A stretch of 64,000 bases of DNA from Moniliella sp. 'wahieum' (taxonomy: Eukaryota), in the NCBI GenBank assembly GCA_003971905.1, contig RSEE01000123.1, forward strand, positions 62,001-126,000. Reading direction: 5' to 3'. Made by a program: the position numbers and the translations under genes. The notes beneath the pieces are model-generated. The model ran no database searches and was not told where the DNA came from. It was given only the letters and a program-made list of their open reading frames with translations. Shown here in pieces: positions 3,001-62,876 of this stretch; the stretch's first letter is position 1, and each line of letters starts with the position of its first letter.

Positions 3001-5708
3001 CCCTGTCGTACTTCATGCCACTCGCAACTCGCCTGACCCTTACATTTGCACTGTAGTACTAGAGAGAGAAGAAAAGAACAGGATCCGCGATCTCTCTTTC
3101 TTCTCTCGTAGAGCAACTGCGAGCTGCTATTAGCAACTTCTCCTAAGGCACTTTTCCGACGTGCACAATCATCTTTGATCACTTAGAAGGGGATGAAGGT
3201 ATAATGACACCGAGGACGGTTACCCTGGTTATGCCTTCTGTTGAGCCACCGGGTGGTTCGTTCGTTTAGTCAACGTCCCTTCCGTCCTCCTCAGGGCTTC
3301 TCAGCCTGAGCCTCAGGCCCCAGGTAGGGTTAGGACGTTCCTTGTTTGCTCGCTTCTGTTTCCTTTTGTTCCGCAGTTATGGGCCCCCCCGGTGGCAAAG
3401 TAGCTGCTCAATTCCCCTCTCTGTTTGTAGTTACTCTAATACTATAGGCGCGTTGTTCCTGGCCTAGACGACGACCACCGCCTTCACCCCACTAGTGCAA
3501 TTGCATCCTCCTCAAAAGGACCATCAGGTACATCACGTCTCTGGGCCTCAAGACTCCAACGGCTCAGCGCTCATCGACATCATCTTCGTTTCCTGTTCTC
3601 AGATCTCAACGTTCAACTTATTATGTTAATGCTTTCAACGTCATCACGTCATCATGTCGTTCATAGTATCACACAACTCTTCAATGCGTATGGATGGCCA
3701 AAGAGCCGCATTCTCTATGAAAGGGAGCAGGGATGATCGATGATGGTGGATGTATTCCAGAAGAGGAGCCCGTCAGGGGCAGAACATAAGGAGAGTCGGA
3801 TAACAGAGTGTGGAAGGAATGTGATTGTCAGATCTGCTTACGCGCTGAATCCTCGCCATCTTCCTATCGGGAAAACCAACTCCGGGTGGCAAACTGTCTC
3901 ACTCTCATCATTATGCTCGGTATGGTGTAAGCGACGCCTATGATGTATGAAGAAAGCGGCCGACAGTGGTCGAGGCTACGGCCTGAACAAGCTGGAAGTT
4001 TGAGTTTTAACCTGAAGCGTGCAGGGCGGATACGTCCAAGTGTCGATGTGGGGATACTGATTTGTGCTATGCGCACATGTATGTCCAGGTTGAGCCGTTG
4101 TTAGTTGGTAGGGCCCGCACGTTAGATAGGATGGTGGGTGGAGGTGCGGGGGTAGGGGTGGGGGGTGGAGGGGGGCTCGTGTGTGGCATGGAGATCCAGG
4201 TGTCATTCATGTCATTGAAGCGGAGGCCTGAACAGAGGTTTTCCGTATGTATGGTGCGGGATTACGGATGGTTGATGACCTGGAGGCGCGATCCGCTGCA
4301 CATATTGATGCAGTTGGGACGTTGGACGTTTTGGACGTTGAGCGAGTGGGCGCTAAGCGGCTGAGCCATTTGAAGGTTAAGTACGTTGAACCTGGACAGA
4401 GCGGTGTGGAGAGAAGGCGAGAAGACGTTCCATCTGTGGAATGGGGGTTTGTGATTAGGCAGGCACGTTATACCTCTCGGCCGGAGGGTGTGGGAGAAGC
4501 TTTGTTTAAAGCTGACATGTGGACAGACCTTGCAGCGGCACTGCTCTGTGGCCAAGAGGTCTCTGAGTCGTCGCCATGACGTCACGGTGCCGGGTCCGTG
4601 CCTTGTGGGGGGGGAGCCCTGGGGAGCTTGGTTTTTGGTTTTTGTTTCGGGCGCACGCCGCGCAAGGGGAAGAGGAGGGTAAGAGAAGACTACGAAGAGA
4701 AGAGGATAGCTGAGCGGGGGATTAGACCCTAGACGGGACACTTGACGGGACTGCGGCGAAGAAAAGAAGAAGGGAAAGGGACGCGCTGCTCAGCCTGAGC
4801 GCTGAGCCGCTCATGCACTCATGTTTATGCATGTTTTCGGACCGATATTATGGACACAAACAAGAGCCGAGAGGCCTTGTCTGTTCCACGTACCAGCCGC
4901 GATCTCAGGCTCAGACAGGATGCCTGAGACAGAGAAAAGCCCTGGCCAAAGGGGCGGCCGAGTCCGTTGGGTACGTTGCGGGATGAGGCTGGCCTGACGC
5001 CTGCGGCTTGATGAGCCCTGGGGCCTGGGATAATCTAACGATCGAGAGAAAAGTGAGATCATCAACCATGGTGACCGGTGACCTGGACTGGCCGGTCCCA
5101 GTTCGTGGGGCGACGAGAGAGAGAACGGGAACTGGGGACGGGCCCCGCGAGCAGTGCTTTGCTGTGCGGGTGCGGTGCGGTGCGGTGCGATGCAGTGCAT
5201 GCCCCGTAGCGCGTAGGGTGGCGTAACGCGACCGGGCCCCGGTAATCCGCCTGAAGCTTTAAACCTCGGCCGGACCGGGGGAGAGTGGGCAGGTGCGTAT
5301 CACGTGCGTCACAGCATCCGCAAAAAGAACGCCCGCCCGCGGCGTTGTTTACATGTTGCAGCCAGACACACTCTAGGCGGTCGGAGCTGGTAGGCGGCAG
5401 CAGTACGCCGTGGGCGGGATGTGGGCACGGTATGGACTGGGTGCGGGCACGCTGCTCTGCTTTGGGGCGATATGATACACATGGGACAGGCGGTGGTGTG
5501 GATAGAACGAGCACATTGCCCGGGTGCTGTGGGCGTCGCGAGAGGGTTACATCACCGTAGACTACTAACCGGGAAGATGGGGCGGCAGATATCTTTTCAA
5601 ACCGACCACTGCCTCCGCTTCCCATTCTCCCCTCCTCTCCTCCTACTTCTTGCCTCCATTGGCAGATAACACACCCACCACATAAACATCATTACGGTTA
5701 TCCACCCA

Positions 5709-7214
5709 TGGATGCCATGCCCCCTGCTGCCCCTGCCTGCGACTTGGTCCTGTCGCCCTTCTGGTCGGATCCTGCCCAACTCGCTCCTTCCTTAATTCTA
5801 GCCCCCCCGCCCCCCACATCGGCTGCCCCTGTCCACGGCGTCCATCCCATCAGTCACTCCATCCGTCACCCCATCCGCCCCCTCCTCCCGGCCTCTTCAC
5901 CCGGCGATCGTCCTCCCTTCCAATGATCTACCCACGGTGCCCCACCTTCCCAACCTTCATGGTCCGCCCACATTTTCCACGAGCCTTGCACCTTTCAAGG
6001 CCGTCGCCGCCGAGACAGCTGTATCTGCCCCACCGCTCTGGGCCATCGCCATGCCCTGCTTCCCACGCCACCGCCATATGGGATGATGGGTAGCCCGCCC
6101 CCTGTCTTTCCGTCGACAGTCGATACGTCCTTACCGCCGAAAAACGCCCCGCAGGGCAACCTGACTTCCGCTTTCCGTACCCCTTCTTCGGCCAGCACTG
6201 CGCGCTTCCCATCAACTGGTGTCACGGCCCCGCTTCAACCAGGTTCCCTTGTTGGGTGCCGATTGAATTGGTGTGATATGATCTGCCAGACAATCGCCGA
6301 AGTGGCAGATGCCAAGTTGGTCGTCCAGGATCTCTTCCTCCGCATGTGCAACAACTTTCCCGAGATTTACCAATGGGCTCATGGGAAAAGCTGGGAGGTA
6401 GGTCTTCTTTCATTTCCATTCTAGTCCCTTGTGTTGCTTTGGTTTCCATCATGTGTACAAGTTTTGGCCTTTTGCCTCTAACTCCATCCCTGTGTGTTTG
6501 TTTTTATATCTCTCTGCAGGGAAAAGTAAAGAACCGTATCAAGTCTACCCTCTCAATCAAAACCCATATTTTCATCAAGATTGCTCGTCCCGCTGCCATG
6601 CCGGGTAAGGGCTCTTGGTGGGGCCTCACGCCCGAGGTGTTGGCGAAATGGAGGACAGGGAAAAAGGCTACCGTCATCCGCACCGTGCCCGCTCCATCGC
6701 ACTCTCGCACCTCCTCCCGTTCATCCGTGACGAGCCATACAGCTGGCGCTGGCGGTCACTCTCGTCGCCCTGCCAAATCCTTACCCAACGTTTACTCGGA
6801 TGCTAGCCCTACCGTGCCAGAGAATGCTTATATGGGCCTCGGATTCCAGCCAATTTTGCGCCCCATTCCACCGTTGGCGTACCGCCGGCCAAGCCCGCAC
6901 CCCTTCGACATACTTCTTTGCCTGGCAATAACATCTACTCCAGCAACGGATCCGTTTCGCTCGGTCCTTCTACCCCTCTCACCCCACTCACCGGGCTCAG
7001 CTCGGCCTCCTCGCCTTCCCTCAAGATCAGTCTATGTTCCTCTCCCAGCCTTCTCTCCCCGGCGTTGGGCCCGACCAGCTTGTCTCCCCAGACTGAACAC
7101 TCGCCGTTGTCCACGCCCACGACTCCAGCGGAAACCGAGCTGGGAACGGTCACAGTAGGAGCGTCACGGGACCTGTGGACCCACCTGGCTCGACAATTCA
7201 ACTGGATGGCCTAG
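5709..7214 (+). CDS. Forkhead (winged-helix) transcription factor, divergent; boundaries approximate, frameshifted
   Basis: Splicing intron 6398-6519 (GTAGGT...CTAAC...CTGCAG) joins ORF 6083-6424 to ORF 6346-7158 in frame, giving WCDMICQTIAEVADAKLVVQDLFLRMCNNFPEIYQWAHGKSWE|GKVKNRIKSTLSIKTHIFIKIARPAAMPGKGSWWGL. This aligns with the forkhead consensus (...I..AI....L.L.EIY..I...FPY...W.NSIRHNLSL...F.KV.R....PGKGS.W.L). Flanks are Pro/Ser-rich. Confidence 0.85.
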
Positions 7215-8230
7215 CTCAACCTTGGTCAAAGCCTATGTGAGCACTCCCACCTCCTCCCTTCTCCTTCCCTTTGTTCCCGTCACCAACAGGCGCTGATGCT
7301 CTCTGGCTGGATCTTTGTGGTTCTGTCCTCCTGCAGGGACGATGATGCATTGGGACAATTCGTAGGATTCCCCCGCCACCTCCCTTGACCTAGAGCTCAA
7401 ACCTGCTCCCTTTGCCTTGACTGAGAGCGGCGGGGAGGGCCTGGCTGCCCCCTTCACTTTTAATAGGCCATTCGACCTGAGCATGACTGTGATTCGTCAT
7501 CGACCATCCTTATTCGCCGCATCCTTTCTCTCACGGTAAAAGTTATCCACTGCGGGTCTCCCGACCCGCTCTCCCCCTTTCTACTATTGGTACCGTATGG
7601 AGCAGACGCTCCCGGGGCCTTGGCCTTCTCTCTTCTGTCTGCTACGCTGGGGTTCCTTTCTTTATGGAATGCTGCAATGACCCACTCCAACTGCATTCTG
7701 CTCCCTCCCTCGTGGTGCGTCTTACATCGGAGCACGTTTGTTCGCCTTTCCAGTTTTCCGCAAAGCCCCTCCCCCCCTCCTGTTTCCCCCGCTGCCCGTA
7801 CAGTTCCACTGCGCGTTTATATTTCCATTTCTTCCTTTGCTTCACTACCTGTGTACACATGTTCACATGTCACGTCGCGTCTCTGTCCTCTGTTGAACTC
7901 GCCGGCCCTACCGCCCTCTTACCTCCTGTCCATGTGCCCGATGTTTCTTTTTATCTACTGCGTTCTCCCTATGTGCGCAATTGGGAAGATACGTTGGATT
8001 CGCTATGCCACACGTACCCGAGTGGGTACTGAGTGGTGCCACATGTCACACCGGAAAACATGGGGGTAGGGGCGTGTGGTTGCACCGGTACCCCCCCATC
8101 CCCGTTTTCATTGGTGTATTCCTTGTTGCCATCATTATTCCTTTCTTCCTATAACTGCGAGAGGCCTGCAATATTATGTAGCCTCTGTCGCCTTGCGTTA
8201 GTAGCTTGAAGCTCAAAATCTTTCGCTCGA

Positions 8231-8345
8231 TCATCGATCACATATCATAGGTCACCGGTCACCGGCCAGCGGTCGTGTGTCACATGTCGCATGTCACATG
8301 CAATGGTCACACGTCACAAGTCACATGTCACACGGTCACACGTCG
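8231..8345. repeat. Period-7 TCA-NNNN array
   Basis: TCA TCGA TCA CATA TCA TAGG TCA CCGG TCA CCGG CCA GCGG TCG TGTG TCA CATG TCG CATG TCA CATG ... TCA CACG TCA CAAG TCA CATG TCA, read directly. Confidence 0.9.
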
Positions 8346-8434
8346 CCCCCTAACACTGTTCGCCGAAGATAGCCGAGGACTGCAGTGGCACTCGGTTCTG
8401 AGCCACTGATCCAATTAATCCAATGTACATTGCG

Positions 8435-11704: not shown

Positions 11705-13856
11705 CGCAGTTGGAATGGGCCCTACCCCGCGCTCCCGTATATAACCCGTCGGCTCTTTTTACACTCTTGGCCCCACGTTGGAAGCAATGCCATACCGCCG
11801 ACAAGTCGCTTTTGCCTGGACGTTTGGGTGAACGTTCCCTTCCCCACGGCTCTTAGGTCCGTATCCCGACTTTGCCTGGATCTCCCCCTTTCTTGTTCCT
11901 CCCCCCTGGTACCCCTCTATTTCCAGGGCGGTGTATGCACCCTACAATAACCCAAGACGTCTGTTGATGCACTGAGGTATCCAACACCGTCTAATCCCTG
12001 TTCCCAGTGCTCCCAGTCCCCCCCCCCCTGTTTTGTTTGTAGTCTGGCCTGCTGGTGTGGCCATGACGGTCGTGTTCTGTTTTGCGTCTCGATTGTTGTT
12101 TCCCCCGTTGTTTTTGTGCCTGGTGATTGGCAAACGGTATGTGTATCTACGCCAATATTTCTAGTACTTGTACGATAAGCCGAGACGATTCTGGGCTGAA
12201 GCAGTGTGCATGGGCAAACACTGTGTATGATGGGGAGTGTTTATAGCTGATGAGCCCTGTTTGGCCCTCATTCTCACCGGTTAACGGGCGGACCCCAACC
12301 CGAGGCCCCCATACCCCGGGGTTTTAGGGGTACACGGTACAGCCCGTTTGAGGTCCGAAGCGTCGACTCGCGACAGTTTCGTGCTTGCGGCGATTGAGAA
12401 TCATCCGAGAGCATAACCGGGACATATGGAGAGGCCTCTCGGCGTATAGAAGAGAGGCGGCACCTTGTGTGGCTAGGCTGCGTAGGCCCCGGAGGATTGA
12501 GTATAGTAGTGAGACGTGTCTCGAGCCGTCCGTATACTCGGGGACGGGAAAGAGACAGTGGAGAGCAATGCTAACCTGGCAGTGGCTTGGCACAGGGACC
12601 GGGACCGGTGCTAAAACGAGAATGAAGCGATTTTTGGACTTATGAAAGGCAGAGAGAAGAGGAGGTAGCCACCATAAAAGGAGGAGGTTCCTGTAGTAAC
12701 GCATATGAATTGACGAAGACATGAGGCAAATATATGCTGGTGGATAATGTAAGGGAAACCTACGATCCATTGCTTTTACAGACGGAGACGAAAGGGAAAT
12801 AATGCACTAGAGGCAGAAGACAGGGGGATAGACAAGCAGTGGACATCAGTCACCATCAGGGAGAGATCATTTCCATCAGGCGGGACTGAGGAACAAAAGG
12901 AAAAAAGTAGATTCGCAGCGCTCCGTCCCCAAAAGTAATGACAAACATGGGTAAGAACAAGTAAGAAAACAGGTACGAACAGGTACGAACAGAACATATA
13001 ACAAACGAAACCACGTTCCTCCGTCCACACGCGCTTCCTAGGGTACGGACCGGATGGCGAGAGCCGGAGGGTCCTGATAGTATCCTGGCAATCCCCCTGG
13101 TTCCTTGACCTTAGTGGCGCTTGCAAACAACCCCCGCAAGATGAACGGTTCGGTTTTAGACGTAGCGTTCCCCCTGTCCCAGCCTTAAGCTCTGTCAATG
13201 GAATGCACACAACAAACGAAGGGGGGGCGACGGTCGTCGCCAAGGATATGTAGGTCGATGACCACTCGGGCCACCGGACAGAATTGACCACTTCACCACG
13301 GGGCTTGGTGGGGCTTGAGAGCAAGCTCTGGTAAGACTGGATAAAGATCGATCCGCAGAGGCGCGAGTAACAAAAGGACAGAAACACGAAATAAGGACGG
13401 TAGGAGGAAGGGTGTCCCGGCGGCAGTTGCTGTCACGGGAACTCTGACGAGAAAGATGAGAAAAAGAGGGGGCGCACAACATTCCGACCGACGGCGAACC
13501 GTGCGTCACTTGATCCAGATCCGTTTCAGATATCAAAAGAGAAGACATAGTATACTCTGGTAGGACATGCGCCTGCGTATATAATAGGTGTTTTTGAGCT
13601 GCGTTGAACATGACAGAGAAGGTTGAAAAAGGGGGGCTATTCATGCCATGTGAGTTTGCTCTGCTGGACCTGTTGGGTGGCATTGAATATTGATCGCATG
13701 GGATGCGATGGCCGCAACACATGGCACCGAATGTTGTTGGGCGGCGATGGTGGATCAGATATAGATATCCAAGGGCCACTATGGATGCTGTGAGAATAGG
13801 GAGACTTCGGTTTGCGCATTTGGGCGGTTCCGCGGAGCGCTTCCCTGGGATCGTTC

Positions 13857-13880
13857 TTAGATCTTAGATCTTAGATCTTA
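13857..13880. repeat. Period-7 array (TTA GATC)3 TTA
   Basis: Perfect tandem heptamer. Confidence 0.9.
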
Positions 13881-14410
13881 TCTGTGCAACGTCCAACCCG
13901 CATGTGAATATTGAATGGGCCGAAGCAAATTTGCAATGGTGCGATGCGCATATGACATGTGACATGTGGCATGTGATGGGTGTGGGACGCGTCACAGACA
14001 GCGCACACTCGAGCAGCGCCGCTGCTGGCATGCTACGCGCTTCTGCTTACGCGCAGGACAGGATGCGATGCATGATGCAACGCAGAGCCGAATGCGTGGC
14101 TTGCTTACAAGCTTGATGCATCATGCATGATGCACTGCGGAGGTACGTGGGAGCAGACGCGGCCCGTGCAGCGGTGTGGCCTACTAAGTGCGCGGGGCCG
14201 GGGGAGGCGCTGCGCTGAACATTTGAATGCCTACTTGGTGAGAGCGATACGGCCCTGAGCGCCTGAGCTCAGCCTGAGCTGAGCGCAGCGAGCAGCAGGG
14301 CGGCCAGAGCTTGCGCCTGCGCCAGTCCTGCGCCACGGCGTCTGTCCAAGCCGTCTGCTGCCGGCCCGTGCCCCACCACTGCCCCGCTGCCCAGCCACTG
14401 CGCTAGCCAC

Positions 14411-14455
14411 TAAGGACTAAGGGCTAAGTGCTAAGTGCTAAGGGCTAAGTACTAA
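14411..14455. repeat. Period-7 TAA-GNNC array
   Basis: TAA GGAC TAA GGGC TAA GTGC TAA GTGC TAA GGGC TAA GTAC TAA. Confidence 0.9.
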
Positions 14456-14769: not shown

Positions 14770-14818
14770 TGACCGGCGACGCGTGACGCGTGACAAGTGA
14801 CTAGTGACTAGTGATGCA
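14770..14818. repeat. Period-7 TGA-NNNN array with palindromic spacers
   Basis: TGA CCGG CGA CGCG TGA CGCG TGA CAAG TGA CTAG TGA CTAG TGA TGCA. Confidence 0.9.
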
Positions 14819-15399
14819 TCTGGCCAGACAGTCTGCACGGCGCCCGTGTGGGAAAAACTCGGCTGCGACGACAGCAGCCGAGCGGTGGCATGGCGTGATG
14901 GCGGATGCATGATGTGCCCGGCAAGGTGCGGCAGGCGCAGGCAGATAGGCAGGGCAGCGCAGGGCAGGGCGAGGCGAGGTAGCTGCCCCGGCGGAGGTGT
15001 GCGCGCGTGCTGCGGCAGGGCTAGTGCTGCCTGCAAGGGTGGTATCTAGTAGGCGGTGATGCATGATGTGGGATGGATGATTTGTGAGTGCTAGTTAGTA
15101 CTTCGTGCTGCGACTGAGTCGTGAGGCGTGAGGCGTGATCGATGATTGATGCATGGGATGAGTGGGACGCGTGAGGCGATGCGTGAGACGATGCATGAGG
15201 CGGCAGCGCTGTGGCGGCTGTGGCTGGCGGCTGCTGCAGCTATCGACTATCGATTCGACACCTATCGATCACCCATGCTCCAGGCTCCATCCGCAATCAC
15301 CCATCTCTGCCCATCCGCCCCGGCCAGCCGTCGACCGCCATCCATCTTCCAGCCTCGACGGCCACCGTCCACGCGTCATCTCCGCCGACGCACCAGCAG

Positions 15400-19510: not shown

Positions 19511-20444
19511 TTGCCGTTACCGCGCCGGTTGCGGTTGTCCTTGTCGTCTGCCCTCCCCCCAATGACGTTCCCCGTCGTACTGGGCGTGTGCCACGCCGGG
19601 CTCAAACTGGAACTCTTGCCGGACGGATGGACGGCGATGGGGTGCCCGCTCCTCTCCCCGTCCCGTCCCGTACCACGGCAATGCAAACCGTGTGGAGAGA
19701 CATTCCCCAGGTCATCTCACTGCGGCGGGGGTGCTGAGGGCGTATGATGCATGATGCGCATATGATGCGCGGGTAGTGTGGACGGGGTGGACACTCTCCC
19801 CCTCCCTTCCAACCTTACCCTTGTGTCTCTTGATCTCTCTCTCTCCTCATCTCCCTCCCTCTTTCCTCCCCCCCCCCCCCTCCCCCATCTCCCGGACTTG
19901 TTTGTGGTTCTGGTTGCGGTTTACGGCTCCTTTGGCTGGCGGACTGCACGGTGCACCTGCCTGGGCTTTAGGCCCGGGGGTGGGCATCGTGTGGCGGAGA
20001 GTCCGGCCTGGGGCTGTGCGTGTATCATTGTTGCGTGCGTGCTGATCGATGATTGTATTACTACTTGCTTGAAGCTTGAAGCTTGAAGCCGAGTCTCATC
20101 CTCTGGACGAAGACGAGGCGAGGTGGGAGATAGTCGAGTCTTGCCTAGTACGCTGGATGAAGTCGATGAAGGGTCAGTGATTGTGCACTGACCCAGGGGT
20201 CATACATCTGATGACAAGGTCACAACCAATGGATCTTCAGTAGCTAGCTTCAGTCTTCTGCTTCAGCGTTCGGCGCGTTCAGCCCAACGGACCCTTGGAT
20301 CTTAGAGCCTGGGGATCCGGTCCTCCTTATTTGAAAGAGGCGTGTCTATTGCTCCCCGATCATCGGTCACCCTTCCAGTTTCGAGAGCTTCACCGGTGAG
20401 GTCACCGGCCACCGAGCTGCCGATGAGGTCACCACTGCAATTCA

Positions 20445-24958: not shown

Positions 24959-26033
24959 GGGTGGTGTGGATGGGATGGAGGGATGGAGGGATGGAGGGAT
25001 GGAGGGATGGCCGAGGGCGGCAGGCTCCTAGGATTCCCGCGCACTTCCAACCCGCCCAAACACCTGGTCCTTGGCCCCCTTGCAACGAATACGCGTGTGG
25101 CTGGCACTGCCCCCGTGCAGCGCCTGCGCCACCCCCGCTGCGCGCTGTACTCTAATCAAAGCGAGCCACGTCGCCCGCATCCATGCGCGGCCAAGCGTGT
25201 TTCTTGTGTTTATCAGCCGCAGGGCAGCCGTCGCACGCCAATCGACCGCCTGTCCTCTCCTTCCCCGACGGCAGGAGCAGCGGTTACTTGTCAGTGCCAG
25301 CATCGCCAAAAGGGAGAGCATCATCCACTCCGCACTCCCTGTCGGCGGCCACAGTTGTGCATTGCCAAATCTTCTCTTCGTCGTCGTCTGTCTCGTCAGT
25401 CGCCTTTCGCCTCTGGCATCATCCATCATCGGTGAATGGACGTTGTTCGGGATGGAAGAGGCGATTGCTTGGTACCCTCAAGTCGGACGTCGGCTGGCAA
25501 TGGCACCCTGCCAATGCCACCATGCACAACATGCTGAACTGCAGGCAGTCATAGGGCCCGCCAAGGGCTGAAACCGCAGATATCGCGTCGCTGACGCTGG
25601 CCCAGCCAGCTGTGGAGATGGGAAGTGCAGCAACATGATGCATGACAAAAGCCTGTACTACTTACACCCTCTGGCTCCCTTGGTGACAAAGCGAGATGGA
25701 TGCGGGCAACGTCGAACAATGTCCTGCTAATATAAAGTTTCCAGGGGTGGAAGCGGGGGGAATGGGGACACTTTCCGCAGGCCCAGCGCCCAATGAACAG
25801 CAGCGTGCCACCACCGTCTCAGCCAATGCACAGCGGCCCACACATGCTGCGATCAATTGTGCAGCCATCACTTCGACATCACCAAAGAAGGTCAAACGGA
25901 ATCAACTCCACCCGTTCATTCCTACCTTGAGTGGCTGATTAGTCCAACTCCTGGCACTGTTGTGGTCGTGCAAACTAACTTTCTTGGCGCAAAAAGCGAT
26001 CCATTACCGACATGGTCTCTACATGAAGATCTA

Positions 26034-26892
26034 TGTCACGGGCGGGGCCCGCCAGGGGCCCGCCCTGGGTGTTTTTGGGGTACAATCCCTTAGGAGACGG
26101 AAGGACGACTCACGGTAGTTTCGGGCTTGGGCTGGTTGGTGTATCCGAGCGGAGCTAGGGACGAGGAGAGGCCTTTGGTGGGGCGGCTGCACGTGTGGCA
26201 AGGCTGCGTCTGCACCGGCTTGGGCCGTAGTAACGTGTCTGAAGCCTCCGGGACTTAGGGACGGGAGGAGGCAGCGGCGGACAAACACTGCCTTAACTGA
26301 GACTGGGAATCGCCGCGGCCAAAGGAGGGCTCGCGCGATGGGGTTGACGAAGGGCTGGAGGACGAGGTCGGAGGAGAAGTCGGACGCTAACAAGAAGAGC
26401 TGCCTGTACTGGATCAATTGGCTGGAAACGGGCAGGAGTCGGACAGGGTAGGCGGGAAAGGGACGAAGGTGGAGACGAGAGATGACGAGAGTGGGGACGA
26501 GAATGGAAGGTGGGGGAAAAGATCCCCATCAACCAGGGGTACAGGCAGGATCAAAAGGGAAACGGATACAAGAGGGGGTGTAGAAAGGAAGACATGTCAA
26601 AAGCGGGGTTGGTCGCCGCAGGCGCGACAGAGAAAGGAAACGGAAACGTGGACGGGACGGCAGATGCCGCCACGGCACTGGAAGCTCGGTGGCCTTATTT
26701 AGGCCGGCCGACTTGGACTTGGGCGGGGGGCGACTATTGTCGCGCGGAGCATGGCCCTTCGGCCACGATACTTGATTTAGCCAACCATCATCACACTTGG
26801 TTGGCCTGCGGAGCACGCTCTACTGGGCATGTGCGGAGCAGGCGGGCCTTAGCTTGGGTCGGACCATCTCGTGTCCGCCGCAGCCCGTGACA
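26034..26892 (-). repeat. 3' LTR (859 bp)
   Basis: TG...CA termini with 10-bp terminal inverted repeat; direct repeat of 28394-29250. Confidence 0.95.
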
Positions 26893-27131
26893 TTACGCTC
26901 CTCTTCACAAGGCGTGTCCGCACGCCTTCCATGGATGGGCTTCCCTCTCTCCTAATAGCAACGGGGAGGGGGTGAAGGAGTGTCGCTTACCCATGCGCAC
27001 ATCTCTCCTTTCCATGGTAAAGCAATCGCGAGGTATGCCCTTCGCTCCCTCGGTCTTTGGGCATACGATCGGCGTCAAACTCCTTTCGCGCCGACCAACT
27101 TTGAACGGGGATTGGGTACTTGGATACTTGG

Positions 27132-27266
27132 CACGCCCCTCCTTCCTTCGAGCGTCGGGGGTGCGGTTCAGGCTCTTGCTCCCACGCCCCTCCTTCCTTC
27201 GAGCGTCGGGGGTGTCAAGCTCTCTTCTCATTCGCACGCCCCTCCTTCCTTCGAGCATCGGGGGTG
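27132..27266. repeat. Three 32-bp repeats CACGCCCCTCCTTCCTTCGAGCGTCGGGGGTG with 19-20 bp spacers, inside the LTR element
   Basis: Copies at 27132-27163, 27183-27214 and 27235-27266 (third has one G>A). Confidence 0.95.
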
Positions 27267-28393
27267 CGAGTCAAAGCCATCTTGAGAGCAGAGAACCAGA
27301 GGTAGAGGCGCTGTTGGCCCGCCGGCTAATGCTCGCCTCCTTTGAGACTTGGGGGAGAGTACAAGCTCCGCTGGCCCGCCTGCCAACGTTCGCTCGCACG
27401 AATACCAGGGCTTGATGTGGACTAGAAGGGGATCGGCGCGCTCCGCTGGCCTGCCTGCCAGCGTTCGTCCGTCGCATCACGCTCCCCTTCACAAGGCATG
27501 CCCACATGCCTACTTGGTAGGATAAACACGGTAATTGGGCTTGCAGCCGTCGCCTCGCCTTATGGCGACCGGCGCTCCCACGCCCCATCCTCCTTATGCG
27601 CGTCCGCGCGCATCTCCTGGGCCTCCTCCCTCTCCGAGGGGGGACAGGAGTTAACCATCGAGAAAGAAGGAATAGAGCAACCGAAATTGACGTCACGGGC
27701 GAAGATCCTGAAAAAAAATTCGCCTTGAGCTGTTGAAAACCGTCGCGAGCGTCCGAGGGTCTTGAGTGGTCGAGGGTTGGACCTCACTTGGAGACGATGA
27801 GCTGGGGTCGAAACCGGTTGGCCATCAGGCCAGGCTCGAGTCGTCCATCGGGGAAGGGAATGAAATCACCTCGCGCGGGACTTGGAGGTAGAGCAGCCGG
27901 GTGAACGCGAGCGTCTTGAATCGTACGCCGACTGGTACTGCTTGATGCGCGAGTGGTGGTGATGGAAAGCAACCAATCCGGGCGCGCTATTGGACGCGAC
28001 CCAGAAACAAAAACAAACGAACCGAGGATAAAGTTTCAAGGCTGATCGAATTTGAAGCGGCAACGAGGGCAAGAAGCTGGCCAAGCCTCAGAGTCATCGG
28101 GAGCCGGGGAAACCATCGGGGGTGCAACGATTGGGGAGGGCCATCCAGGGCCTCGTCGCAACGGAGGGGAGAAAGCGGGAAAAGGGAAGAGCGCCTTGGC
28201 ATCGGGGACGACGAACGGGGGATGCGCTCAAGGACTGAGGGTGAAAAACGGGGAGGGCACGTCTGCCCAACGGGAGGGGAAACGGGAACGGGATGGGGAA
28301 ACGGGCCGACGACTTGCGCAGGCTTGAAAAGGGACCAGCCCAAAATAACGACGAACCTTGAGGACCTGCCTTGGGAACCCGGACCTTCCATTA

Positions 28394-29250
28394 TGTCACG
28401 GGCGGGCGCCGCCAGGGGCCCGCCCTGGGGTTTTTGGGGTACAATCCCTTAGGAGACGGAAGGACGACTCACGGTAGTTTCGGGCTTGGGCTGGTTGGTG
28501 TATCCGAGCGGAGCTAGGGACGAGGAGAGGCCTTTGGTGGGGCGGCTGCACGTGTGGCAAGGCTGCGTCTGCACCGGCTTGGGCCGTAGTAACGTGTCTG
28601 AAGCCTCCGGGACTTAGGGACGGGAGGAGGCAGCGGCGGACAAAACTGCCTTAACTGAGACTGGGAATCGCCGCGGCCAAAGGAGGGCTCGCGCGATGGG
28701 GTTGACGAAGGGCTGGAGGACGAGGTCGGAGGAGAAGTCGGACGCTAACAAGAAGAGCTGCCTGTACTGGATCAATTGGCTGGAAACGGGCAGGAGTCGG
28801 ACAGGGTAGGCGGGAAAGGGACGAAGGTGGAGACGAGAGATGACGAGAGTGGGGACGAGAATGGAAGGTGGGGGAAAAGATCCCCATCAACCAGGGGTAC
28901 AGGCAGGATCAAAAGGGAAACGGATACAAGAGGGGGTGTAGAAAGGAAGACATGTCAAAAGCGGGGTTGGTCGCCGCAGGCGCGACAGAGAAAGGAAACG
29001 GAAACGTGGACGGGACGGCAGATGCCGCCACGGCACTGGAAGCTCGGTGGCCTTATTTAGGCCGGCCGACTTGGACTTGGGCGGGGGGCGACTATTGTCG
29101 CGCGGAGCATGGCCCTTCGGCCACGATACTTGATTTAGCCAACCATCATCACACTTGGTTGGCCTGCGGAGCACGCTCTACTGGGCATGTGCGGAGCAGG
29201 CGGGCCTTAGCTTGGGTCGGACCATCTCGTGTCCGCCGCAGCCCGTGACA
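28394..29250 (-). repeat. 5' LTR (857 bp)
   Basis: Direct repeat of 26034-26892. The few differences I could see are mostly 1-bp indels in or near homopolymers. Confidence 0.95.
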
Positions 29251-29585
29251 GTAGGATCGGGTACCGCGGTTGCCGGTTGCCGGTTGCCGGTTACCGTGCA
29301 ACTATTACTGATTTGAACACAATCAGTCCACTTCCATTGCGCAAGTGGGGGGATTGCTACTATTGACACAGCTCTGCTCAGCAATGGTTACCGGTTAATG
29401 ATTAACGATTGAAAGTGTACGCTTGCTCGTTCCCACCGCACACCGACGGCAGAGGTCTTGTTGGAGCAGTACGGCGGTGCGGCGATGCGGCGTCCGCTCC
29501 TGCATCTGATTACCCGCCCCCATTGTACCGGACCTATCTGCATGATCAATGTGGTATGACCAATGCTCAACACCATCCGGCTTCC

Positions 29586-32431: not shown

Positions 32432-33400
32432 GAGAGCCGCGCAGATCGTCAGCTCGTACCGCAGCGGCAGGATGGATGGTGGTGTGGCCATGGCGAGGAG
32501 GTGGCTAGAGGGGCGGGTGGTTGGCCGTCGTCGGTGGGTCTCAAGAGGTGTGGCTGGATGGGGCTGGAGGACTGGCATGGATATGCTGCTGCTATTCAGT
32601 GGATGCAGTGGGGTGGCACTGGCCCTGCCTCGCTCGGCGCCGCCGCGGCCCGCAAGGCACTGCCGGACTGTTTCGGGAGGGGGCACGGCGGCAGTGTTGG
32701 CTTGCCTTTTATGTCTTTTCGACTCTCGCCACGCATATGGCCACAACGCTCTTATACGGGGGGGCGACGAGGCCGGAGATGAACACGGTAAGGGCGTGAA
32801 GGAAGCGCCGTGGCGTGTACCTCGTATGCTCGTATGAACGTCCCGCTGGACGCTGAACCCCATAGCTGCCCCAGCAGAGTATCAGTTTGGTGAATTCATC
32901 GTCCCCACCATCACAGCCCTACATCATGCATGATTTGCATTATCAATGGCAATGTTTTTCGTCATCACATACGTGTGATGAGATCTGCTCTGAGATCTGA
33001 ACAGAGAACATTGCTAAGATGCCCATTCAAAGTCAGCCCTGGCCCTGGCAACAAAAAGTTGAACCATCGCTTCGCTAATGGCGACATGTGTTTGGCTCTG
33101 AACATTGGGAAGAAGAAACATGGCGCTCGTAAACGTTAGCACCATGCCAACATGAGAGCTGTGTGCGAAAGTCATTTTGGGTAATTATAGACGTATCGAG
33201 GAGAGAGATAGCCAGAAACAGGGGACATGATCGGGCTGTCCATGTGAGAGACGCTTGGGGTGTTGAATGGCAGAAGACATGAACGTTGTGAATCTTTTGG
33301 TTGACTAGGGTCACAGTATAAGGGACAGGATGATATGATCAGCACAGCAGGTGTTTTGTTTTGACGAGAGAAGCTGAGGGTTGTAGGCATATACACTTCT

Positions 33401-39312: not shown

Positions 39313-39679
39313 TCCCTGCCTGCCCCTTGCCGTGGCGACCCACCTCGTATACCTGACCCTTCTCCTGTTCGTCCCGCTCACCATCTGCTCCCTTTTCCTC
39401 CAACCCCGTCTAAATTCCCCGCACTCCAGGGCCCACGGCGCACGCCCTTCTACACCTCCACGCCTGCTTCCACCACATGGCCTGCTACATTGGGGTTTGG
39501 CGGGGGCGCTGCCTCCCGTTACAACAATCTCTCTCAACACCTATGGGCCCTTGTGTCAGACTGGCATGTCGCGTATCTGCTGAACATTCTATTCCTGAAA
39601 GGAGCACCTGAGTAGGAACGGCTCGTAGTGAGCATAGAAACGAAAAGATCATCGAGGAAAGTGCGTTGGTGATTGGGGC

Positions 39680-46386: not shown

Positions 46387-47172
46387 AGCCATAAGCCTGA
46401 AGCCCGAGTCTGTATGTCCATGCATCGGACCAATAAACCACACCAATATACCCGCCGTCCACGATGATGATTTTCTAGTTTTGTTCTCTGTCGCGTATGG
46501 CCTGTACATGCCCCTGTCCACTACGTTGCTTTTCCCCAGTTGCATGGCTCTGTAGAATGCACCTCGTTTTCAGATGCCTACTGAATGGCAAGAGGGTTGA
46601 GAGTTGAGGCGTTGAGGATGCGAGCGCGGACTCCAAACCGTAGGTGAGGGAGGTTCTGTCGTGAGCTGGCGCTACTGGAAGGACCATCTATCTGAGATCT
46701 GATCGATCGATCAAAGGCCTTTGAAATCTCATCTTCCCAAAGAACGGATGGGGGATGGATGATGGTGATGATGGATGATGGATGATGCACGTGCCTCGTC
46801 TCGGGGCTGCACAAGTTGAAATGTTTTCTTGGGAATGTCCGCGCTGGGCTGCTGGACCCCCCAGCAGGACCGACCTTCCCCTTCACTCATCCTCCTCCTT
46901 ATCGTCCTGGGTTCAACGGCTCATCCTTCATCCTTCAGCCCCTTCATCGTTCCTCTCTTCCTGCTTCATCTTCCAGCCTTCATCCTCTCCATCCCTCCCT
47001 CCATAACCCCCCCTCACCAGCAGCGACCCGCTCCATCCTCATCCACCACTCCTTTTGCACCCACGCTGCTGATGCTTATTGCGTCACTTCTGCATCTGCC
47101 TCTGCCTCCGCCTCCTTTGTCCTGACTCCAGCACTCTCTCCGTCTTCGCCTCCTTTCTGTTGACTTGGGACC

Positions 47173-54585: not shown

Positions 54586-54666
54586 GGACGGCTGGCGCAA
54601 TGGTAGCGCGTCTGACTACGACTGGTTGTAATCAGGAGGTTTCAGGTTCGACCCCTGCGTCGTTCG
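54586..54666 (+). tRNA. tRNA-Arg(ACG) with 9-nt intron (54622-54630)
   Basis: Acceptor stem GGACGGC/GTCGTTC+G. A box TGGCGCAATGG. Anticodon arm TCTGA-CT-ACG-A-[CTGGTTGTA]-A-TCAGG. T arm CAGG-TTCGAC-CCCTG. Confidence 0.95.
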
Positions 54667-54687
54667 ACCCGACAAGGGCGTCCTTCC

Positions 54688-56864: not shown

Positions 56865-57405
56865 GAGAGGGGCCTGGATCTTGCATGTCCCTTCCCGTTC
56901 CCATCGACCGACTGGGGAGGAGGACGCAGACTATGACTATGGCGGTGTACCACGCAGGCAATTGATTCTACCGGAGATTAGATCGCAGTGTTGTATAGTT
57001 GCTACAGCAGAGCGAAAGAAGCAGAGCGGTTGGTTATATTCGCTCCCAGTCGCAATAGGCTGGCGTGAGATCGAGAGAGCTCGGGGCATTTTCATGGTGG
57101 TCTGCTCAAACCTTCTGCCACGATCATGCATCGCATCATGCATCATGCATCTCACTGCTTCCACGTGGGCACCATGGACGCTGCCACGCAGGACGCGCCG
57201 CCGACTGCCACCACCTCTCCCCTGCTGCCTCCACCATGCGTCGTTGGCGTGCGGGCACGCTGGTGCGGCTGCGTTATGTGCCAGCCTTGTCTCCGCCGCC
57301 GCGCGCCCACCACGCGTCCCCACGCCGTCCGTGTCGGCGTCGACGCACCCTGACCGAGCCCCCGCTGGCGCCGCGAGCTGCTCGAGGCGTGGGCCTACGT
57401 CGCCT

Positions 57406-60400
57406 ATGGCCTGGCCCAGCCCGCGTCGGCAGCGGGCGTGGCGCTAGGCCCATCCGCCTCCCTCTCTGTGCTGGACGATGATGCCGGCCGCCATCGGCCT
57501 GTTCGACGTGCTCGGACGCGGCCCACAACGCGCTGCGCGCCCAGGGGGTGCCAGAACAGCTTCGGACGCGGACCAGCTTGCCTGCTCGACAAGGCACTGC
57601 AATCGCTCGGAGCGCCTGCCTCGCACCGTGCCTGGTGGCACACCGCCGTTGCTGCCCCGCTCCACCACCCCTCGCTTCGCTGCCCAATGGCCACCCTCGC
57701 TCCGCCCTCTCCCCCACCGGTGACTGTCCGTCCTGGATCACCTGCCGCGCTCGACGTCACGCTGTGTGATGACTCGCAGCTTCTGGATGCGGTGGAGCGT
57801 GAGCGTGAGCTCTCCTTTTCAGCTGCCGCTCCGTTCTCCTGAAGGCCTGGCACACATCGTATCTCATGGCGAGCCAACGCAACTGCCATCCTGTACGCTG
57901 ATGGCCAGACTTTCCTTTCCCCTGCTGGCCTTGCTCTTCATTCTGCCCTGCATGGCGGCACAAGAGGGGAAGATCAAATGTTTTACGCTGGGCCCGACCT
58001 TGGACACGGGCAGCGACGTGTCAAGTTGAGCGGATACGGCGCCAGCCTCGATCTCAAGAAGTCGACTATCTCGTCCTGGACGATCGCGCTATTGAGGAGG
58101 ATGCACCGCTTTCGTCTGAAGAACAAGTCGTGCTTTCCAGCGATGAGGACCCCACAAACGACGATGGGGCCTGGCTCCGTGCTCAGTTACCGACTTGGGG
58201 TCGGCGAGAGCAAGGCGGACAGGTTCACTCCGCTGGGACACAAGGTCAGCTGGCTCATCTCGGCTTCTTCCGATCCGCTGCGGGCATTGCGGACATTGGT
58301 TTCGGACCTTCCCAACCATGTGGGATGGATCCAATCTCTCTTTCCTCGAAGGCGCTCGTGCCGCTGAGTACGCCAACTTCTCCATGACTGTCGGTAGTAG
58401 TAACCAACAAAGCTTGTTGCCAGCGGGCACCAACCTGCTCTGGCTCAATGGTGCTAGCGTGCCCCTGACGGAGTCCGAGTCGGCGGGAACACCGCCAGCG
58501 CACCAGGACGTACAAGCTCTCCTGCGCACCCTGAGCAACGAGGAGCACAAGTTGTCTTACATCCTCAACCGAATCAATTCGTCTCTTCCCACAGAGGAAG
58601 GGCAGCGCCAAGTCGCTCAGTTGCTCAATGACGATCGAGTTCTCGGGCAAGGCTCGACTACACTGTTGCGTATTGACGCCTCGGACGATCACGAGGGCGA
58701 GAAAGGTGCCATTGTGCGTGTGACCGACGTGCGCAGGGCTCCTACTGAAGAACAGCGTGACTGGGACTCGTCCCTCGCCCCACTTCTCGAAACCGTATCG
58801 GGCGGAGGAAGGGTGGCCCCGGCTCTGGTGCAGCGCAACCTTTTTGAGATTGTCTGGGCGTTTGACTTGCGTGCGAGGGGGAACATTGCATTCCTTGCGG
58901 AGGCTCTGCCTTACATTACGGCTAGCGTACCTATGACCTGGGCCGTTGTTCCCCTCAGCCCAGCCCTTCCAAAGCTGGGGCAGTGGCGGAAGAGCTAGCT
59001 AGAATTTGCACTACGTTTCCCGCTCGGCTGGGCCAGAGGGTGTGCTTCTGTGGGCCGAGGCGGTTGCCTCGGACGTGCCTAGGGACAAGGACAAGCAGCA
59101 CCTGGTCAGTGTTTCCACCGCACGACGCGCCGCCACATGGTCCTGGACGGTCCCCTTGGTGGCGCCCATGCCGTTACCGAACAACTCAACCTCCTGCATC
59201 GTGCCTCGCAGGGCAAGACGAGTGGGACCGAAGATGACCTGGTGGGTACGCAGGCTTTGCAAGCTTCTCGCCTTTGGGCCAAACGTCTGGGTGTGCCCCC
59301 GGCCAGCGAGGCTGTGCCTCTCCCGCGTCCCGTACCCGTCTTGGCCCGGAATGCGCCCTCCCCCTCCTCCCTCGGGTGTGGCGTTCCTGAATGGCGAACG
59401 GGTTACGGTGGACGAACGATGGATGAACCGCCTGAGCGCTAGCTTGGGTCGCGATTTGGAGTTGCTGATGAAGCCGTTCGGACTGGCGAGATACAAGATG
59501 ATGTGGTGGATGAGATGGATCCGGTTGAAGGCTATTTCTACCGTCTTCCCGGGACTCTGTCTCATTTCTCGCCTCTGGTGGACCGGTTGGGATCCAAGGG
59601 CCCACTCGAGATCGTTGACGTTTCTACCGCCCTATCGTTCGAGCCAACCAGCTGCCAACGTGTCCCTTCTTGTGGTGGCTGATTTGGACCGACCGGCCAC
59701 ACAGAGCGTGCTCCGTGCTGCCCTGGCCGCCGCTGACGTTCCAATCGATCTTGCCGTTTCCCACCAAGCTTCTTCCGCTGGGCGGGAGCCGTATCGAGCT
59801 GTCTGTATACCCTTTTGTCCCGTCCTGGTCTTCTATACCGACGTGGGAGACGAGGTACTTGCTTGCCTCGACGCGCCTGGACAGGTATTGCCCGATTCGG
59901 AACTGTGGTGGACCCAGCATACCCCTCTTCTCTCCTCTCGATCAGAAGGTCGCTCTGGTGCTCAACGGCCGAGTCTTGTGGGTGGATCCGGAGGAAGCCA
60001 GCAGCTCAGATCTAGTGGCTGTCCTCAAGCTCGAGAGCACCCATCGCGCTGCGGGACTGAGGGAGGCGGTCGGTTCGATTGCTGGCTCTGTCTCGGCGAC
60101 TCGCCTAGCAGAGGTGCGCCATGCTGTGTTTCAAGCCAGAAGGGATCCTTTTTACTCGTCGGGAGTGGCTCCGCGTTTGGGCCAGGCATTGGCCAAAGTG
60201 GTTGCGGACCATGGTTCGGCTGTTTCCTTTGGCTCTGAACGTTCGCCTTTAAGCTTTACCCTCGCTTTGGATCCCACCTCGGATGAGGCCCCGCAATGGG
60301 CAGCCACACTGGCTGTTCTTCAGCGTTTCCCCAACGTGCAAGTCCAACTGGTATGGAACCCACCCCGTACGGAGGAGGAGGAGGTATTGGATCCGCGTCT

Positions 60401-62174
60401 GGCCATGGCGGGGGTGGAGCCCAAGGTGCCCGAGCCACCAGAGCTACCGGCGTTGGCCAAGCGGTTCACTCGCCACCTTGTACCGCAGTTGACGTTTGAC
60501 GCCCATGGCCAGCGGGTTGTGCCTCCTCTCCTATTTGGGGGTGAGAGCGTACCGCAAGATGAGGTGTTGACCCTGGCTCTTGTCCCACCTCCGGCATGGC
60601 ACACCATGCCCACCAAGGCGCTGTACGATTTGGACAACTTACGTCTCTCTGCCCTTCCAGATGGACAGGAGGCCGGGGTAGAAGCAACGTACTCTCTTGA
60701 GGGTCTTCTTGTCCAAGGCCATGCTGTGGACCTTTCCTCTCGTCAGAGGGAATCTCCCAGTGGCATGCAGCTCCTCCTGCAACGCCCCTCCCCCTCTGGT
60801 TCCGACGCCAGCGCCAGCGTCGACGTCCCAGTCGAGTCACACGACACGATCGTCATGGACAACCTCGCTTATTTCCAGTTCCGTGCTCAACCGGGCGAGT
60901 GGGACTTGTCTCTCCGTCCGGGTCGGACGGCCGAGGTGTATAGGTTAGCGTCGGACCTCAAGACATTTTCGGTGCAGCTTGCCTCGCTCGAAGGCATCAC
61001 CATCCAACCCAAATTTGTCAAGCAGCCAGGTATGCTCAATGCTCGTCTTGTTGAGGATCCCGAGGCTCCAGTGTCGGTTGTGGATGAGGATGGGTATGTT
61101 TCCATGGTCCCCTCCACCACTGGTGGGGCAGGCTCAGTATGGTCCTCCCTCAGCTCGCGGATCAAGGCTTGGGTCCCAGGCAAAGCCCCTAACCGGCACG
61201 CCGACATTAACATTTTCACCATTGCCTCGGGCCATCTTTATGAGCGATTCTTGTCCATCATGATCCTCAGGTACGTCTTTACGTCTTTACTCTTCTATCT
61301 TTGAACCGCTGTATGACTAACCCCACTTTGTTCTTAGTGTTTTGCGTCAAACGGAACACAGCGTCAAGTTTTGGTTTGTCGAAGATTTCCTGTCGCCGTC
61401 GTTCAAGCACCTTCTACCTGCCCTCTCGTCCCACTATGGCTTCCAATACGAGCTCGTCTCGTACGCCTGGCCTCACTGGCTCCGCTCGCAAACAGAGAAA
61501 CAGCGTACCATTTGGGGGTACAAGATTCTCTTCCTGGACGTGCTGTTTCCACTTGACTTGGACCGGATCTTGTTTGTTGATGCGGACCAGATTGTGCGGA
61601 CGGACTGTACGAGTTGACAACGATGGACCTGCATGGCAAGCCATACGCCTACCCCCCCATGGGCGACGACAGCTACGATATGGATGGGTTCCGGTTCTGG
61701 AAGACGGGGTACTGGAAAAACTTTCTGCGCGGCAAGCCCTATCACATTTCGGCGCTCTACGCCGTTGATCTCGTTCGGTTCCGCCAACTGGCCGCGGGCG
61801 ATCGGCTTCGAGCGCATTACCAAGCCCTCTCGGCCGACCGGGGCAGTTTGGCCAACTTGGACCAAGACTTGCCCAACAGTCTGCAATTTTCCCTCCCCAT
61901 CCACACCTTGCCCAAAGAATGGCTCTGGTGCGAAACCTGGTGCTCCTCCGACTGGCTCCCCCAGGCCAAAACCATCGACCTCTGCTCCAATCCCAAGACC
62001 AAGGAACCCAAGTTGGACCGCGCTCGGCGTCAAATGCCCGAATGGAGCGTGTACGATCAAGAAATCGCCAACTTTGTCGCTTCCCTCAAGACGAACCGGA
62101 CCGAATCCGAGTCCGAGGCGGACACCCACACCCCTGGCCCACACTCAGAGCCAGAGAGACATGAGGACTTGTAG
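57406..62174 (+). CDS. UGGT: UDP-glucose:glycoprotein glucosyltransferase (UGGT/Gpt1/Kre5 family); start approximate, frameshifted
   Basis: [93 protein letters not shown] (intron 61271-61337), GT24 motifs [51 protein letters not shown], and C-terminal HEDL. Confidence 0.95.
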
Positions 62175-62404
62175 TGGCTTTTTTGCTCGCTTCTTGCGCC
62201 TCTTCCCCTCTTCTCCTCCCCCCCTAACCCGCCTCATTTTGCATCTCGTGCCCTCATTTTATTCATCGCATGAACGTGAACCTTGGCTGTGTGCGCGGAC
62301 GACGGTTGGGTCGACCGAGACGGGCGGGGGTCTAGCGTTCGGGTTGTCGCAGTGGGATGGACGTTGTGCTGGTTAGAAAGATATTGGTCCGAGTCTTCAA
62401 AGCA

Positions 62405-62439
62405 TTAAGCCTGAAGCTTGAAGTTTGAAGCTTGAAGCT
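62405..62439. repeat. Period-7 array TTA AGCC TGA AGCT TGA AGTT TGA AGCT TGA AGCT
   Basis: Read directly. Confidence 0.9.
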
Positions 62440-62520
62440 GGTCACGAGAATCCTACCCGTCCCGCAATCGCACCGAGTTCACTCTATACTAGCCGTCGCT
62501 TCCAGTCGAGTCCTTCGTAG

Positions 62521-62558
62521 TCAACAATCATTAATCAACGTTGAACATTGAGTATTGA
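62521..62558. repeat. Period-7 array TCA ACAA TCA TTAA TCA ACGT TGA ACAT TGA GTAT TGA
   Basis: Read directly; six TNA triplets in perfect 7-bp phase. Confidence 0.9.
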
Positions 62559-62798
62559 GTCCAGCTCAACCGAGTGGTCCCTAAGTACACAGTGCACGCG
62601 GCCAACGCTTAGCACTCAGTCTGAGTGCCAAGACAGACAGCGTGGGTAACACATGTATGGGGTGGGGGATGGGGTACGGAGGACGGGGTGGGATGGAGGG
62701 TGGCGGGCTGGGCGGATAAATACGCAAAAATCTTGTCTTTGGTCTTCGGCTGGCGGCCAAATATTACAAGAACGGTGAACTGAACGGTGACTACCAGC

Positions 62799-62876
62799 TG
62801 ATGAATGATGAATGATGATCGATGATCGATAACGTGTGATGCATGTGATGCATGATCGATTAATATTTAATGATTA
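62799..62876. repeat. Period-7 TNA-NNNN array
   Basis: TGA TGAA TGA TGAA TGA / TGA TCGA TGA TCGA TAA CGTG TGA TGCA / TGA TGCA TGA TCGA TTA ATAT TTA ATGA TTA. Confidence 0.88.

Follow-up and report, generated by a model that had tools for sequence, protein, structure and literature searches.

Subterminal repeats are a feature of EnSpm/CACTA transposons, the superfamily closest to the elements considered here. In its CMCT clade, termini are mostly CA..TG and target-site duplications (TSDs) 2-5 bp long, according to the part of PMC12730594 that deals with the clade, and for Cryptococcus neoformans a section of PMC12810828 gives terminal inverted repeats (TIRs) that start with CACTG and a 3-bp TSD for CNIRT6, and a 2-bp TSD for CNEST. 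CACTA footprints and one-ended excisions have been reported, in a passage of PMC6379663 that does not give their rule, and excision of Muta1 is described as mostly precise (an extract of PMC5225508). Flank hairpins have been reported for hAT, Transib, RAG and MULE (PMC5499845, in part). In Candida albicans, the footprints of the hAT element Ac/Ds are dominated by two types with short P tracts, and their palindromes are centred on the complement of the element-bordering base (both from passages of PMC5873905).

The sequence studied here is a 64,000-bp stretch of the Moniliella sp. 'wahieum' genome (positions 62001-126000 of contig RSEE01000123.1, or C123; hereafter the window) from an assembly of 69.5 Mb in 223 contigs (GCA_003971905.1). 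Its intergenic regions carry TNA triplets placed 7 bp apart and separated by 4-nt spacers that are often palindromic (TNA-N4-TNA, hereafter units). These units are probably excision footprints of an EnSpm/CACTA-like lineage of the CMCT clade with an atypical 7-bp target duplication. A search of the literature, covering titles and opening abstracts of open papers, gave no account of such genome-wide arrays or of an EnSpm element with a 7-bp TSD.

Heptamer arrays and 7-bp gains between copies

Compared with 30 local dinucleotide shuffles, the window contained 160 units (shuffle mean 118.2, maximum 141), 56 of them with a palindromic spacer (mean 7.3, maximum 13), and the excess of palindromes claimed by the original prediction was thus recovered. 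The 7-bp spacing proved specific as well, since neither the 111 triplet pairs with a 3-nt spacer nor the 95 with a 5-nt spacer exceeded the shuffles, while four TNA in phase occurred 22 times as opposed to 0.4 times in shuffled sequence (maximum 2). In a 200-kb stretch of contig C1, 327 palindromic units were counted against 27.5 in shuffles, and the whole assembly held 10,714 runs of four TNA compared to 2,844 for the reversed pattern, as expected of a genome-wide feature. The density of units with the same N in both triplets was 6.9 per 10 kb for the window and 9.8 for C1, as against 0.45 in a metagenome control of 80 UGGT loci (694 kb, 63-73% identical to the query and assumed to come mostly from other fungi). 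The pattern is a real genome-wide mutational signature.

A sample of 484 kb yielded 547 palindromic units, in which all 16 possible palindromes were represented. Only 9 lay inside coding segments, as called by a rough self-trained model, and 538 outside, in line with the intergenic location first described. The same N was found in both triplets of 454 units, and this N was G or C in 378 of them. A PIF/Harbinger-like 3-bp TWA target, which had been put forward, does not agree with this base preference, nor with the 7-bp nnTNAnn duplication described below. By extrapolation, a density of approximately 0.9 same-N units per kb would amount to some 30,000 in a haploid set, most of them close to promoters.

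How the units arise could be followed by means of a second collinear copy of the window region on contig C72 and a similar pairing of the C1 region with C25, the paired copies differing by 6,387 substitutions in 212,237 positions (3.0%). We treat the pairs as two haplotypes, the alternative being the homeologs of a hybrid. In all, 944 kb of these four contigs and a few small loci were examined, less than 2% of the assembly, and indels were compared over 297,194 aligned bases. Indels of 1 and 2 bp prevailed (2,960 and 962 in 297 kb); this excess, together with genes split across frames, suggests uncorrected assembly errors, which add noise to every divergence figure given here. The search for 7-bp length differences called for by the original prediction was successful: clean indels peaked at 7 bp, with 59 events compared to 39 at 6 bp and 18 at 8 bp.

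A slightly different flank filter gave 65 clean 7-bp indels, of which 18 were exact tandem copies. In 31 of the other 47 a 5-bp duplication was present, and the remaining 2-nt filler was the reverse complement of the two adjoining bases in 25 of the 31 (binomial p 9e-18 against 1/8). A T-N-A core was found in 22 of 28 targets of such inverted-filler indels. A model of target duplication with opened flank hairpins, set out below, fitted 32 of the 65 events at +7, as opposed to 3, 4 and 5 for the control cores ANT, CNG and GNC, and it also fitted 3 of 18 events at +8, 3 of 16 at +9 and 2 of 13 at +11, where every control scored 0; no fitting event was seen at +10 or +12 in the aligned bases. Of 70 exact 7-bp duplications in non-coding DNA, 27 had the nnTNAnn register, compared to 3-7 for other registers. 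Longer spacers followed the same rule, the model accounting for 40 of 303 5-nt spacers (ANT control, 1 of 222) and 34 of 386 6-nt spacers (ANT, 2 of 264). In same-N units, the spacer dinucleotide recurred in the flank in 377 of 454 cases, whereas this was so for 8 of 53 CNG and 3 of 7 ANT units. Moreover, 20 of 45 fitted events were in phase with a pre-existing TNA. The excess amounts to approximately 36 events per 297 kb, which would correspond to about 4,000 differences in 35 Mb. A sequencing artefact was ruled out, as the errors are mainly 1-2-bp indels and could not yield flank-templated +7 events at one core.

Single units also occur inside copies of retroelements and transposons, where the direction of change could be read. 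At the 4 informative sites among 14, the motif copy was longer than most others (7 of 9, 10 of 14, 2 of 2 and 2 of 2, with allelic pairs included among the comparators), and the spacer was predictable from the flank of the remaining copies; at least these events are gains, not losses. When the rule was applied strictly to repeat copies, none of 18 events could be classified, owing to flank mismatches.

Replication or repair with a template switch could in principle give similar products, if a nascent strand folded back over 2-3 nt and re-primed 5 nt upstream by T/A microhomology, slippage then expanding the result. The exact tandem copies among the 7-bp indels would fit, as would the make-up of neighbouring units, since 74 of 115 adjacent palindromic pairs were identical with constant N and 19 differed in spacer with N kept. 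Slippage probably does add units in uniform arrays; mixed arrays, such as that at 3599-3615, are explained by repeated hits. The N of TNA differed between copies at 0.058, compared to a background of 0.031 in aligned non-coding DNA, and C<->G changes, which such a switch would favour, were over-represented at this position (14 of 38 counts, with events counted twice, against a 13% background); longer palindromic tracts or conversion inside arrays are possible causes of this faster divergence. However, a zero-loop fold-back would lack primer pairing, and neither the preference for TNA over ANT, CNG and GNC nor the nnTNAnn register of exact duplications and the two-ended +9 and +11 additions would be accounted for. 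The switch also disregards resident elements with the same 7-bp target, and we regard it as improbable.

Within 500 bp of gene 5' ends, unit density was 2.2 per kb compared to 0.6-1.1 near 3' ends, and it was 2.18 in divergent compared to 0.78 in convergent intergenic intervals (19 and 22 intervals), all of these values resting on the rough gene model. Such a distribution is what phased binding arrays, selected in promoters for an oligomeric DNA-binding protein, would show, and this had been offered as an alternative to scars. Insertion into open chromatin also predicts a promoter bias. Fixed motif positions differed between copies at 0.026-0.043, diverging like other non-coding DNA (0.031) and showing no constraint, although about half the background would be expected even under neutral decay. 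The occurrence of 16 different palindromes with a spacer set by the flank, and of single units inside mobile-element copies, also argues against selected arrays, which we consider highly improbable as an origin. The 5'-end bias is instead read as an insertion preference for open promoter DNA; some scars may subsequently have come into use as binding sites.

A resident EnSpm/CACTA-like family and Tnp2-like genes

The original prediction had proposed a search for TIR elements flanked by TNA duplications, and a family with 7-bp nnTNAnn duplications was found. A TNA-anchored end pattern had 334 genome matches, and among the 100 matches listed were two facing ends on contig C11. The family ends, as defined by genome pattern search, read CTCACTGA(G/T)CCGAG. 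When the TNA requirement was dropped, 23 matches were obtained: 11 carried the family tail, 5 were related variants and 7 were unrelated sequences; as only the exact pattern was counted, the 11 family and 5 related ends are a lower bound. The sequence nnTNAnn preceded 10 of the 11 family ends, or 9 of 10 when the C11 end used in designing the pattern is omitted, and identical 7-bp nnTNAnn duplications flanked 4 of 5 paired copies: GATCATG on C23, GATGATG on C20, CATCAAC on C35 and GTTGATG on C34. The abutting duplications set the termini as CT-CACTG...CAGTG-AG.

These fixed CT...AG ends do not agree with the proposal that each spacer consists of 2 nt from either element end, as all 16 palindromes occur, CTAG accounts for 32 of the 547 palindromic units, and the flank match holds for 377 of 454. 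A 3-bp TSD combined with element-end spacers was accordingly rejected, on the grounds of the 7-bp register and the flank-copied spacers.

The 4,968-bp C23 copy has inverted arms of 84 bp and subterminal repeats of 11 bp. It also contains a decayed remnant of Tnp2, which corresponds to the C-terminal half with an H(3)H motif and gave E 7e-10 against Tilletia Tnp2 by tblastn and E 1.3e-13 in a profile search; Pfam gave no match in three of the open reading frames of this copy. The C20 copy is a 378-bp derivative. Family TIRs span 66-84 bp, and subterminal arrays of 11-bp and 10-bp repeats were seen in the C23 and C20 copies. From these features the family appears EnSpm-like without being a member, its termini and TSD length both being off. 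At C8:478671-478950, a lone left end of the short element lies within an array and is preceded by TGA-AG-CT; this one case reads like a hairpin-opened flank rejoined to an element end after one-ended excision.

Two further Tnp2-like genes, at C17:555595-559041 and C34:513408-516695, are better preserved than the C23 remnant. They are unrelated to each other, and heptamer arrays lie just upstream of both. The C34 gene occurs as a single copy, a search of the assembly having given no partner for it; it lies approximately 8 kb from a family copy and has Tilletia proteins as its nearest named relatives. Aligned to a Rhizoctonia EnSpm it retains both aspartates, the C(2)C and the H motif, with uncertain placement of the catalytic glutamate, while in C17 the first aspartate is replaced by His. 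A genome search with a Tilletia Tnp2 query returned no loci other than those on C34 and C17 and did not pick up the decayed C23 copy, so negative protein searches in this genome are weak. This applies to the domain searches, in which PF05699 (hAT dimerisation) and PF18758 (KDZ) had no genome match but their positive controls did not match either, and PF10551 (MULE) had no genome match while its positive control matched. A profile search by sequence for solved structures found none. A structural model of one Tilletia Tnp2 relative (predicted local distance difference test, pLDDT, 69.9) matched RAG1 (E 5e-9), BbRAGL and HzTransib.

Probable excision footprints and candidate agents

The favoured excision model would run as follows. 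The 7-bp target uv-TNA-ab is duplicated when an element inserts, as is shown for the resident copies. At excision, a RAG1-like transposase, as the modelled fold and the family would suggest, may cap both flanks with hairpins, nicking exactly at the border. RAG itself nicks exactly at the border, and hairpins are often opened approximately 2 nt from the tip. Host enzymes, presumably, would likewise open each hairpin about 2 nt beyond its tip, leaving the 3' overhangs ab-b'a' and v'u'-uv. Joining with one overhang kept would then add 7 bp, giving TNA-abb'a'-TNA from the right flank or TNA-v'u'uv-TNA from the left; joining without added bases would give an exact 7-bp duplication, and parts of both overhangs +8, +9 or +11. 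This product spectrum (+7, +8, +9, +11 and exact duplication) is the one observed between copies. Each scar would create two new nnTNAnn targets, and repeated hits, to which slippage would contribute after a symmetric unit had formed, would build arrays of constant N and mixed spacers; the clustering in phase is observed, and re-targeting would be its cause. Scars would persist outside coding DNA, since +7 shifts the reading frame; they are denser near 5' ends and decay without visible constraint. Of the stacked-scar idea in the original prediction, the TNA-targeting cut-and-paste scars, the palindrome from a flank hairpin and the regenerated targets are retained, whereas PIF/Harbinger, the 3-bp duplication and spacers from element ends are not.

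Several observations weigh against this model. Among the clean 7-bp indels, 33 of 65 fall outside it, and +5 and +6 indels fit it no better than controls. The scars exceed the element ends found by hundreds to one. A few dozen elements jumping approximately 100 times each since the split could suffice, but they should then be young; the only fully read copy (C23) is decayed, no active copy was found, and some family copies appear common to both haplotype-like contigs (C35/C29 and C4/C16), which suggests that they are old and immobile. Neither the 944 kb scanned nor the window held a TIR element with a 7-bp duplication, the TIR and TSD scans yielding only ends resembling long terminal repeats (LTRs) and array-to-array coincidences. 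Nor did the 944 kb or the 19 alignment breaks show any site that was occupied by an element in one copy and scarred in the other; the recognisable breaks were insertions of LTR type or like long interspersed elements, and none was a TIR element with a 7-bp duplication. The C11 family copy (C11:228241-233085) has differing flanks, both nnTNAnn, which suggests that two copies have recombined or that the element is a hybrid. The C34 and C17 Tnp2 genes have no DNA similarity to the C23 copy, no TIRs were found within 2-2.5 kb of the C34 gene, and the modelled protein is from Tilletia, not from the Moniliella genome. Finally, the literature examined has no direct report of hairpin chemistry for EnSpm itself.

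The numerical excess of scars over ends also speaks for the same chemistry in the hands of another agent, either a Tnp2/RAG1-like gene that lacks TIRs and may be domesticated (C34 or C17) or a different family with a 7-bp TSD, making most of the scars in trans or via short-lived insertions and leaving the CTCACTGA copies as bystanders or relics. The C34 gene would suit such a role, being single-copy, free of nearby TIRs, close to a family copy and in possession of its aspartates, C(2)C and H motif, and hAT7 and Kyakuja give 7-bp TSDs in basidiomycetes, as noted in part of PMC12730594. On the other hand, a 7-bp duplication should require strand transfer with DNA ends, for which an element-less enzyme would be insufficient, and the glutamate of C34 and the His of C17 raise doubts about either gene. 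No genome match was obtained for the hAT dimerisation, KDZ or MULE domain, with two of the three controls also lacking a match, and hAT footprints centre on an extra complementary base, according to a passage of PMC5873905, while the palindromes here are even-centred. On balance we think another agent unlikely, and the resident family is a candidate source of the scars.

A bolder possibility, which we hold to be doubtful, is that an EnSpm-derived, RAG1-like transposase, perhaps a TIR-less gene kept by the host such as the single-copy C34 gene, wrote self-regenerating 7-bp promoter scars tens of thousands of times through short-lived cycles of insertion and excision. If so, a heritable V(D)J-like junction process would be a major source of short non-coding insertions and tandem repeats. 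If the excision model holds, an EnSpm-like lineage with lengthened ends and a 7-bp target centred on TNA would lie outside the TSD lengths of 2-5 bp described so far, and the arrays would form a genome-scale natural record of how CACTA-type elements exit their donor sites, supporting RAG-like flank hairpins. Tandem repeats could then start from transposon scars instead of slippage, and past cut-and-paste activity could be read from scars where few elements survive.

Sites in the window and comparison with known systems

All 17 stretches cited by the original prediction contained units at their coordinates (58 in total, 32 with palindromic spacers), and the pattern was present throughout, albeit sparsely in two of them. 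The two-unit array TCA-GATC-TCA-ACGT-TCA at 3599-3615 may have arisen from an original TC-TCA-AC by one event of the left type and one of the right type. A long decayed array at 8231-8345 has 7 strict units, 3 of them palindromic, and is 21 bp (3 units) shorter in the other copy. It is followed by (TTA-GATC)x3-TTA at 13857-13880, identical in both copies, a partly decayed TGA-CATG array with just 1 strict unit at 13953-13976, and a TGCA array at 14114-14134. Of the 6 units in the TAA array at 14411-14455, just 1 is palindromic, and the other copy is shorter. The TGA array at 14770-14818 has CGCG and CTAG spacers, with a 53-bp stretch missing from the other copy, and the TGA array at 15115-15145 lies directly 5' of a coding-like segment. 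Shorter runs are a TGA-AGCT array at 20070-20086, a TTA-CCGG-TTA unit with a neighbour at 29388-29404 and a single TCA-TGCA-TGA unit, differing in N, at 32924-32933. TGA-GATC-TGA units occur at 32991-33002, where the other copy repeats 32996-33002 exactly once more, a 7-bp duplication with the nnTNAnn register, and at 46693-46706, where the first N shows a G/C difference between copies. A TCA-TGCA unit at 57136-57149 lies 5' of the UGGT coding segment and a TGA-AGCT array at 62405-62439 3' of UGGT. The mixed array at 62521-62558 carries in the other copy a +11 event at 62526-62532, with both 4-nt hairpin overhangs retained, and a long mixed array at 62799-62876 has 5 palindromic spacers.

Beyond the cited examples, a +9 footprint present only in the window copy (62916-62931) consists of the complete duplication of 7 bp, its two halves separated by 2 palindromic nucleotides. 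Empty nnTNAnn sites in the window correspond to a left-type +7 scar in the other copy at 3192-3198, to right-type +7 scars at 20172-20178 and 39627-39633, and to an exact 7-bp duplication at 63083-63089.

The genes of the window encode forkhead-like and DnaJ-like proteins (both assignments score under the Pfam cut-off), WD40, M1 aminopeptidase, BAH-PHD and GATA proteins, a sulfate transporter with a cyclic nucleotide monophosphate (cNMP) domain, an aldo-keto reductase and UGGT, and many of them are broken across reading frames. The C-terminus of UGGT (61623-62075) is 77-81% identical to proteins of Tilletiaria, Testicularia, Ustilago and Tilletia, so that the fungus is probably Ustilaginomycotina-like. 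Two insertions are missing in the other copy. One is a 3.2-kb element at 26032-29253 with two 864-bp LTR-like repeats that are 99.4% identical (TGTCACGG...CCGTGACA) and no evident target duplication; the other is a 228-bp dispersed repeat fragment at 12983-13210, flanked by short direct repeats and with dozens of genome matches, which is probably a non-LTR element that inserted in truncated form. By eye, the sequence at approximately 54587-54667 resembles a tRNA-Arg(ACG) gene that contains a short intron and has a run of T behind it; ARAGORN in bacterial mode made no call there.

Among described systems, hAT7 and Kyakuja of basidiomycetes (PMC12730594, in part) and Galileo of the P superfamily share the 7-bp TSD. 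The target consensus of Galileo is GTANTAC, a symmetric 7-mer, according to an extract of PMC4168063, and hAT entries with a 7-bp TSD are mentioned in a passage of PMC4455052. These elements differ in having other transposases, and Kyakuja lacks TIRs, whereas the element here carries an EnSpm-type remnant; the passages concerned report no arrays for them. The Ac/Ds footprints of plants, Saccharomyces cerevisiae and C. albicans are similar in that hairpin opening and end joining leave short palindromes. However, hAT usually duplicates 8 bp, as stated in part of PMC12730594, and its palindromes have an odd base at the centre, while here 7 bp are duplicated and the palindromes are even-centred.

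The P-nucleotide joints of RAG1 in V(D)J recombination, of Transib and of ProtoRAG share even-centred palindromic additions copied from the flank, as flank hairpins would produce, and the modelled fold of the Tnp2 relative is RAG1-like. In contrast to those systems, the products here are unusually uniform (+7), are tied to a 7-bp target centred on TNA and have built up throughout the genome in heritable DNA. The CMCT clade of EnSpm/CACTA, with CNIRT6 and CNEST of C. neoformans, matches the resident family in its Tnp2-like remnant, CACTG TIRs, subterminal repeats and short non-autonomous derivative, and is set apart from it by the two extra end bases found here (CT-CACTG) and by the 7-bp duplication with its TNA core.

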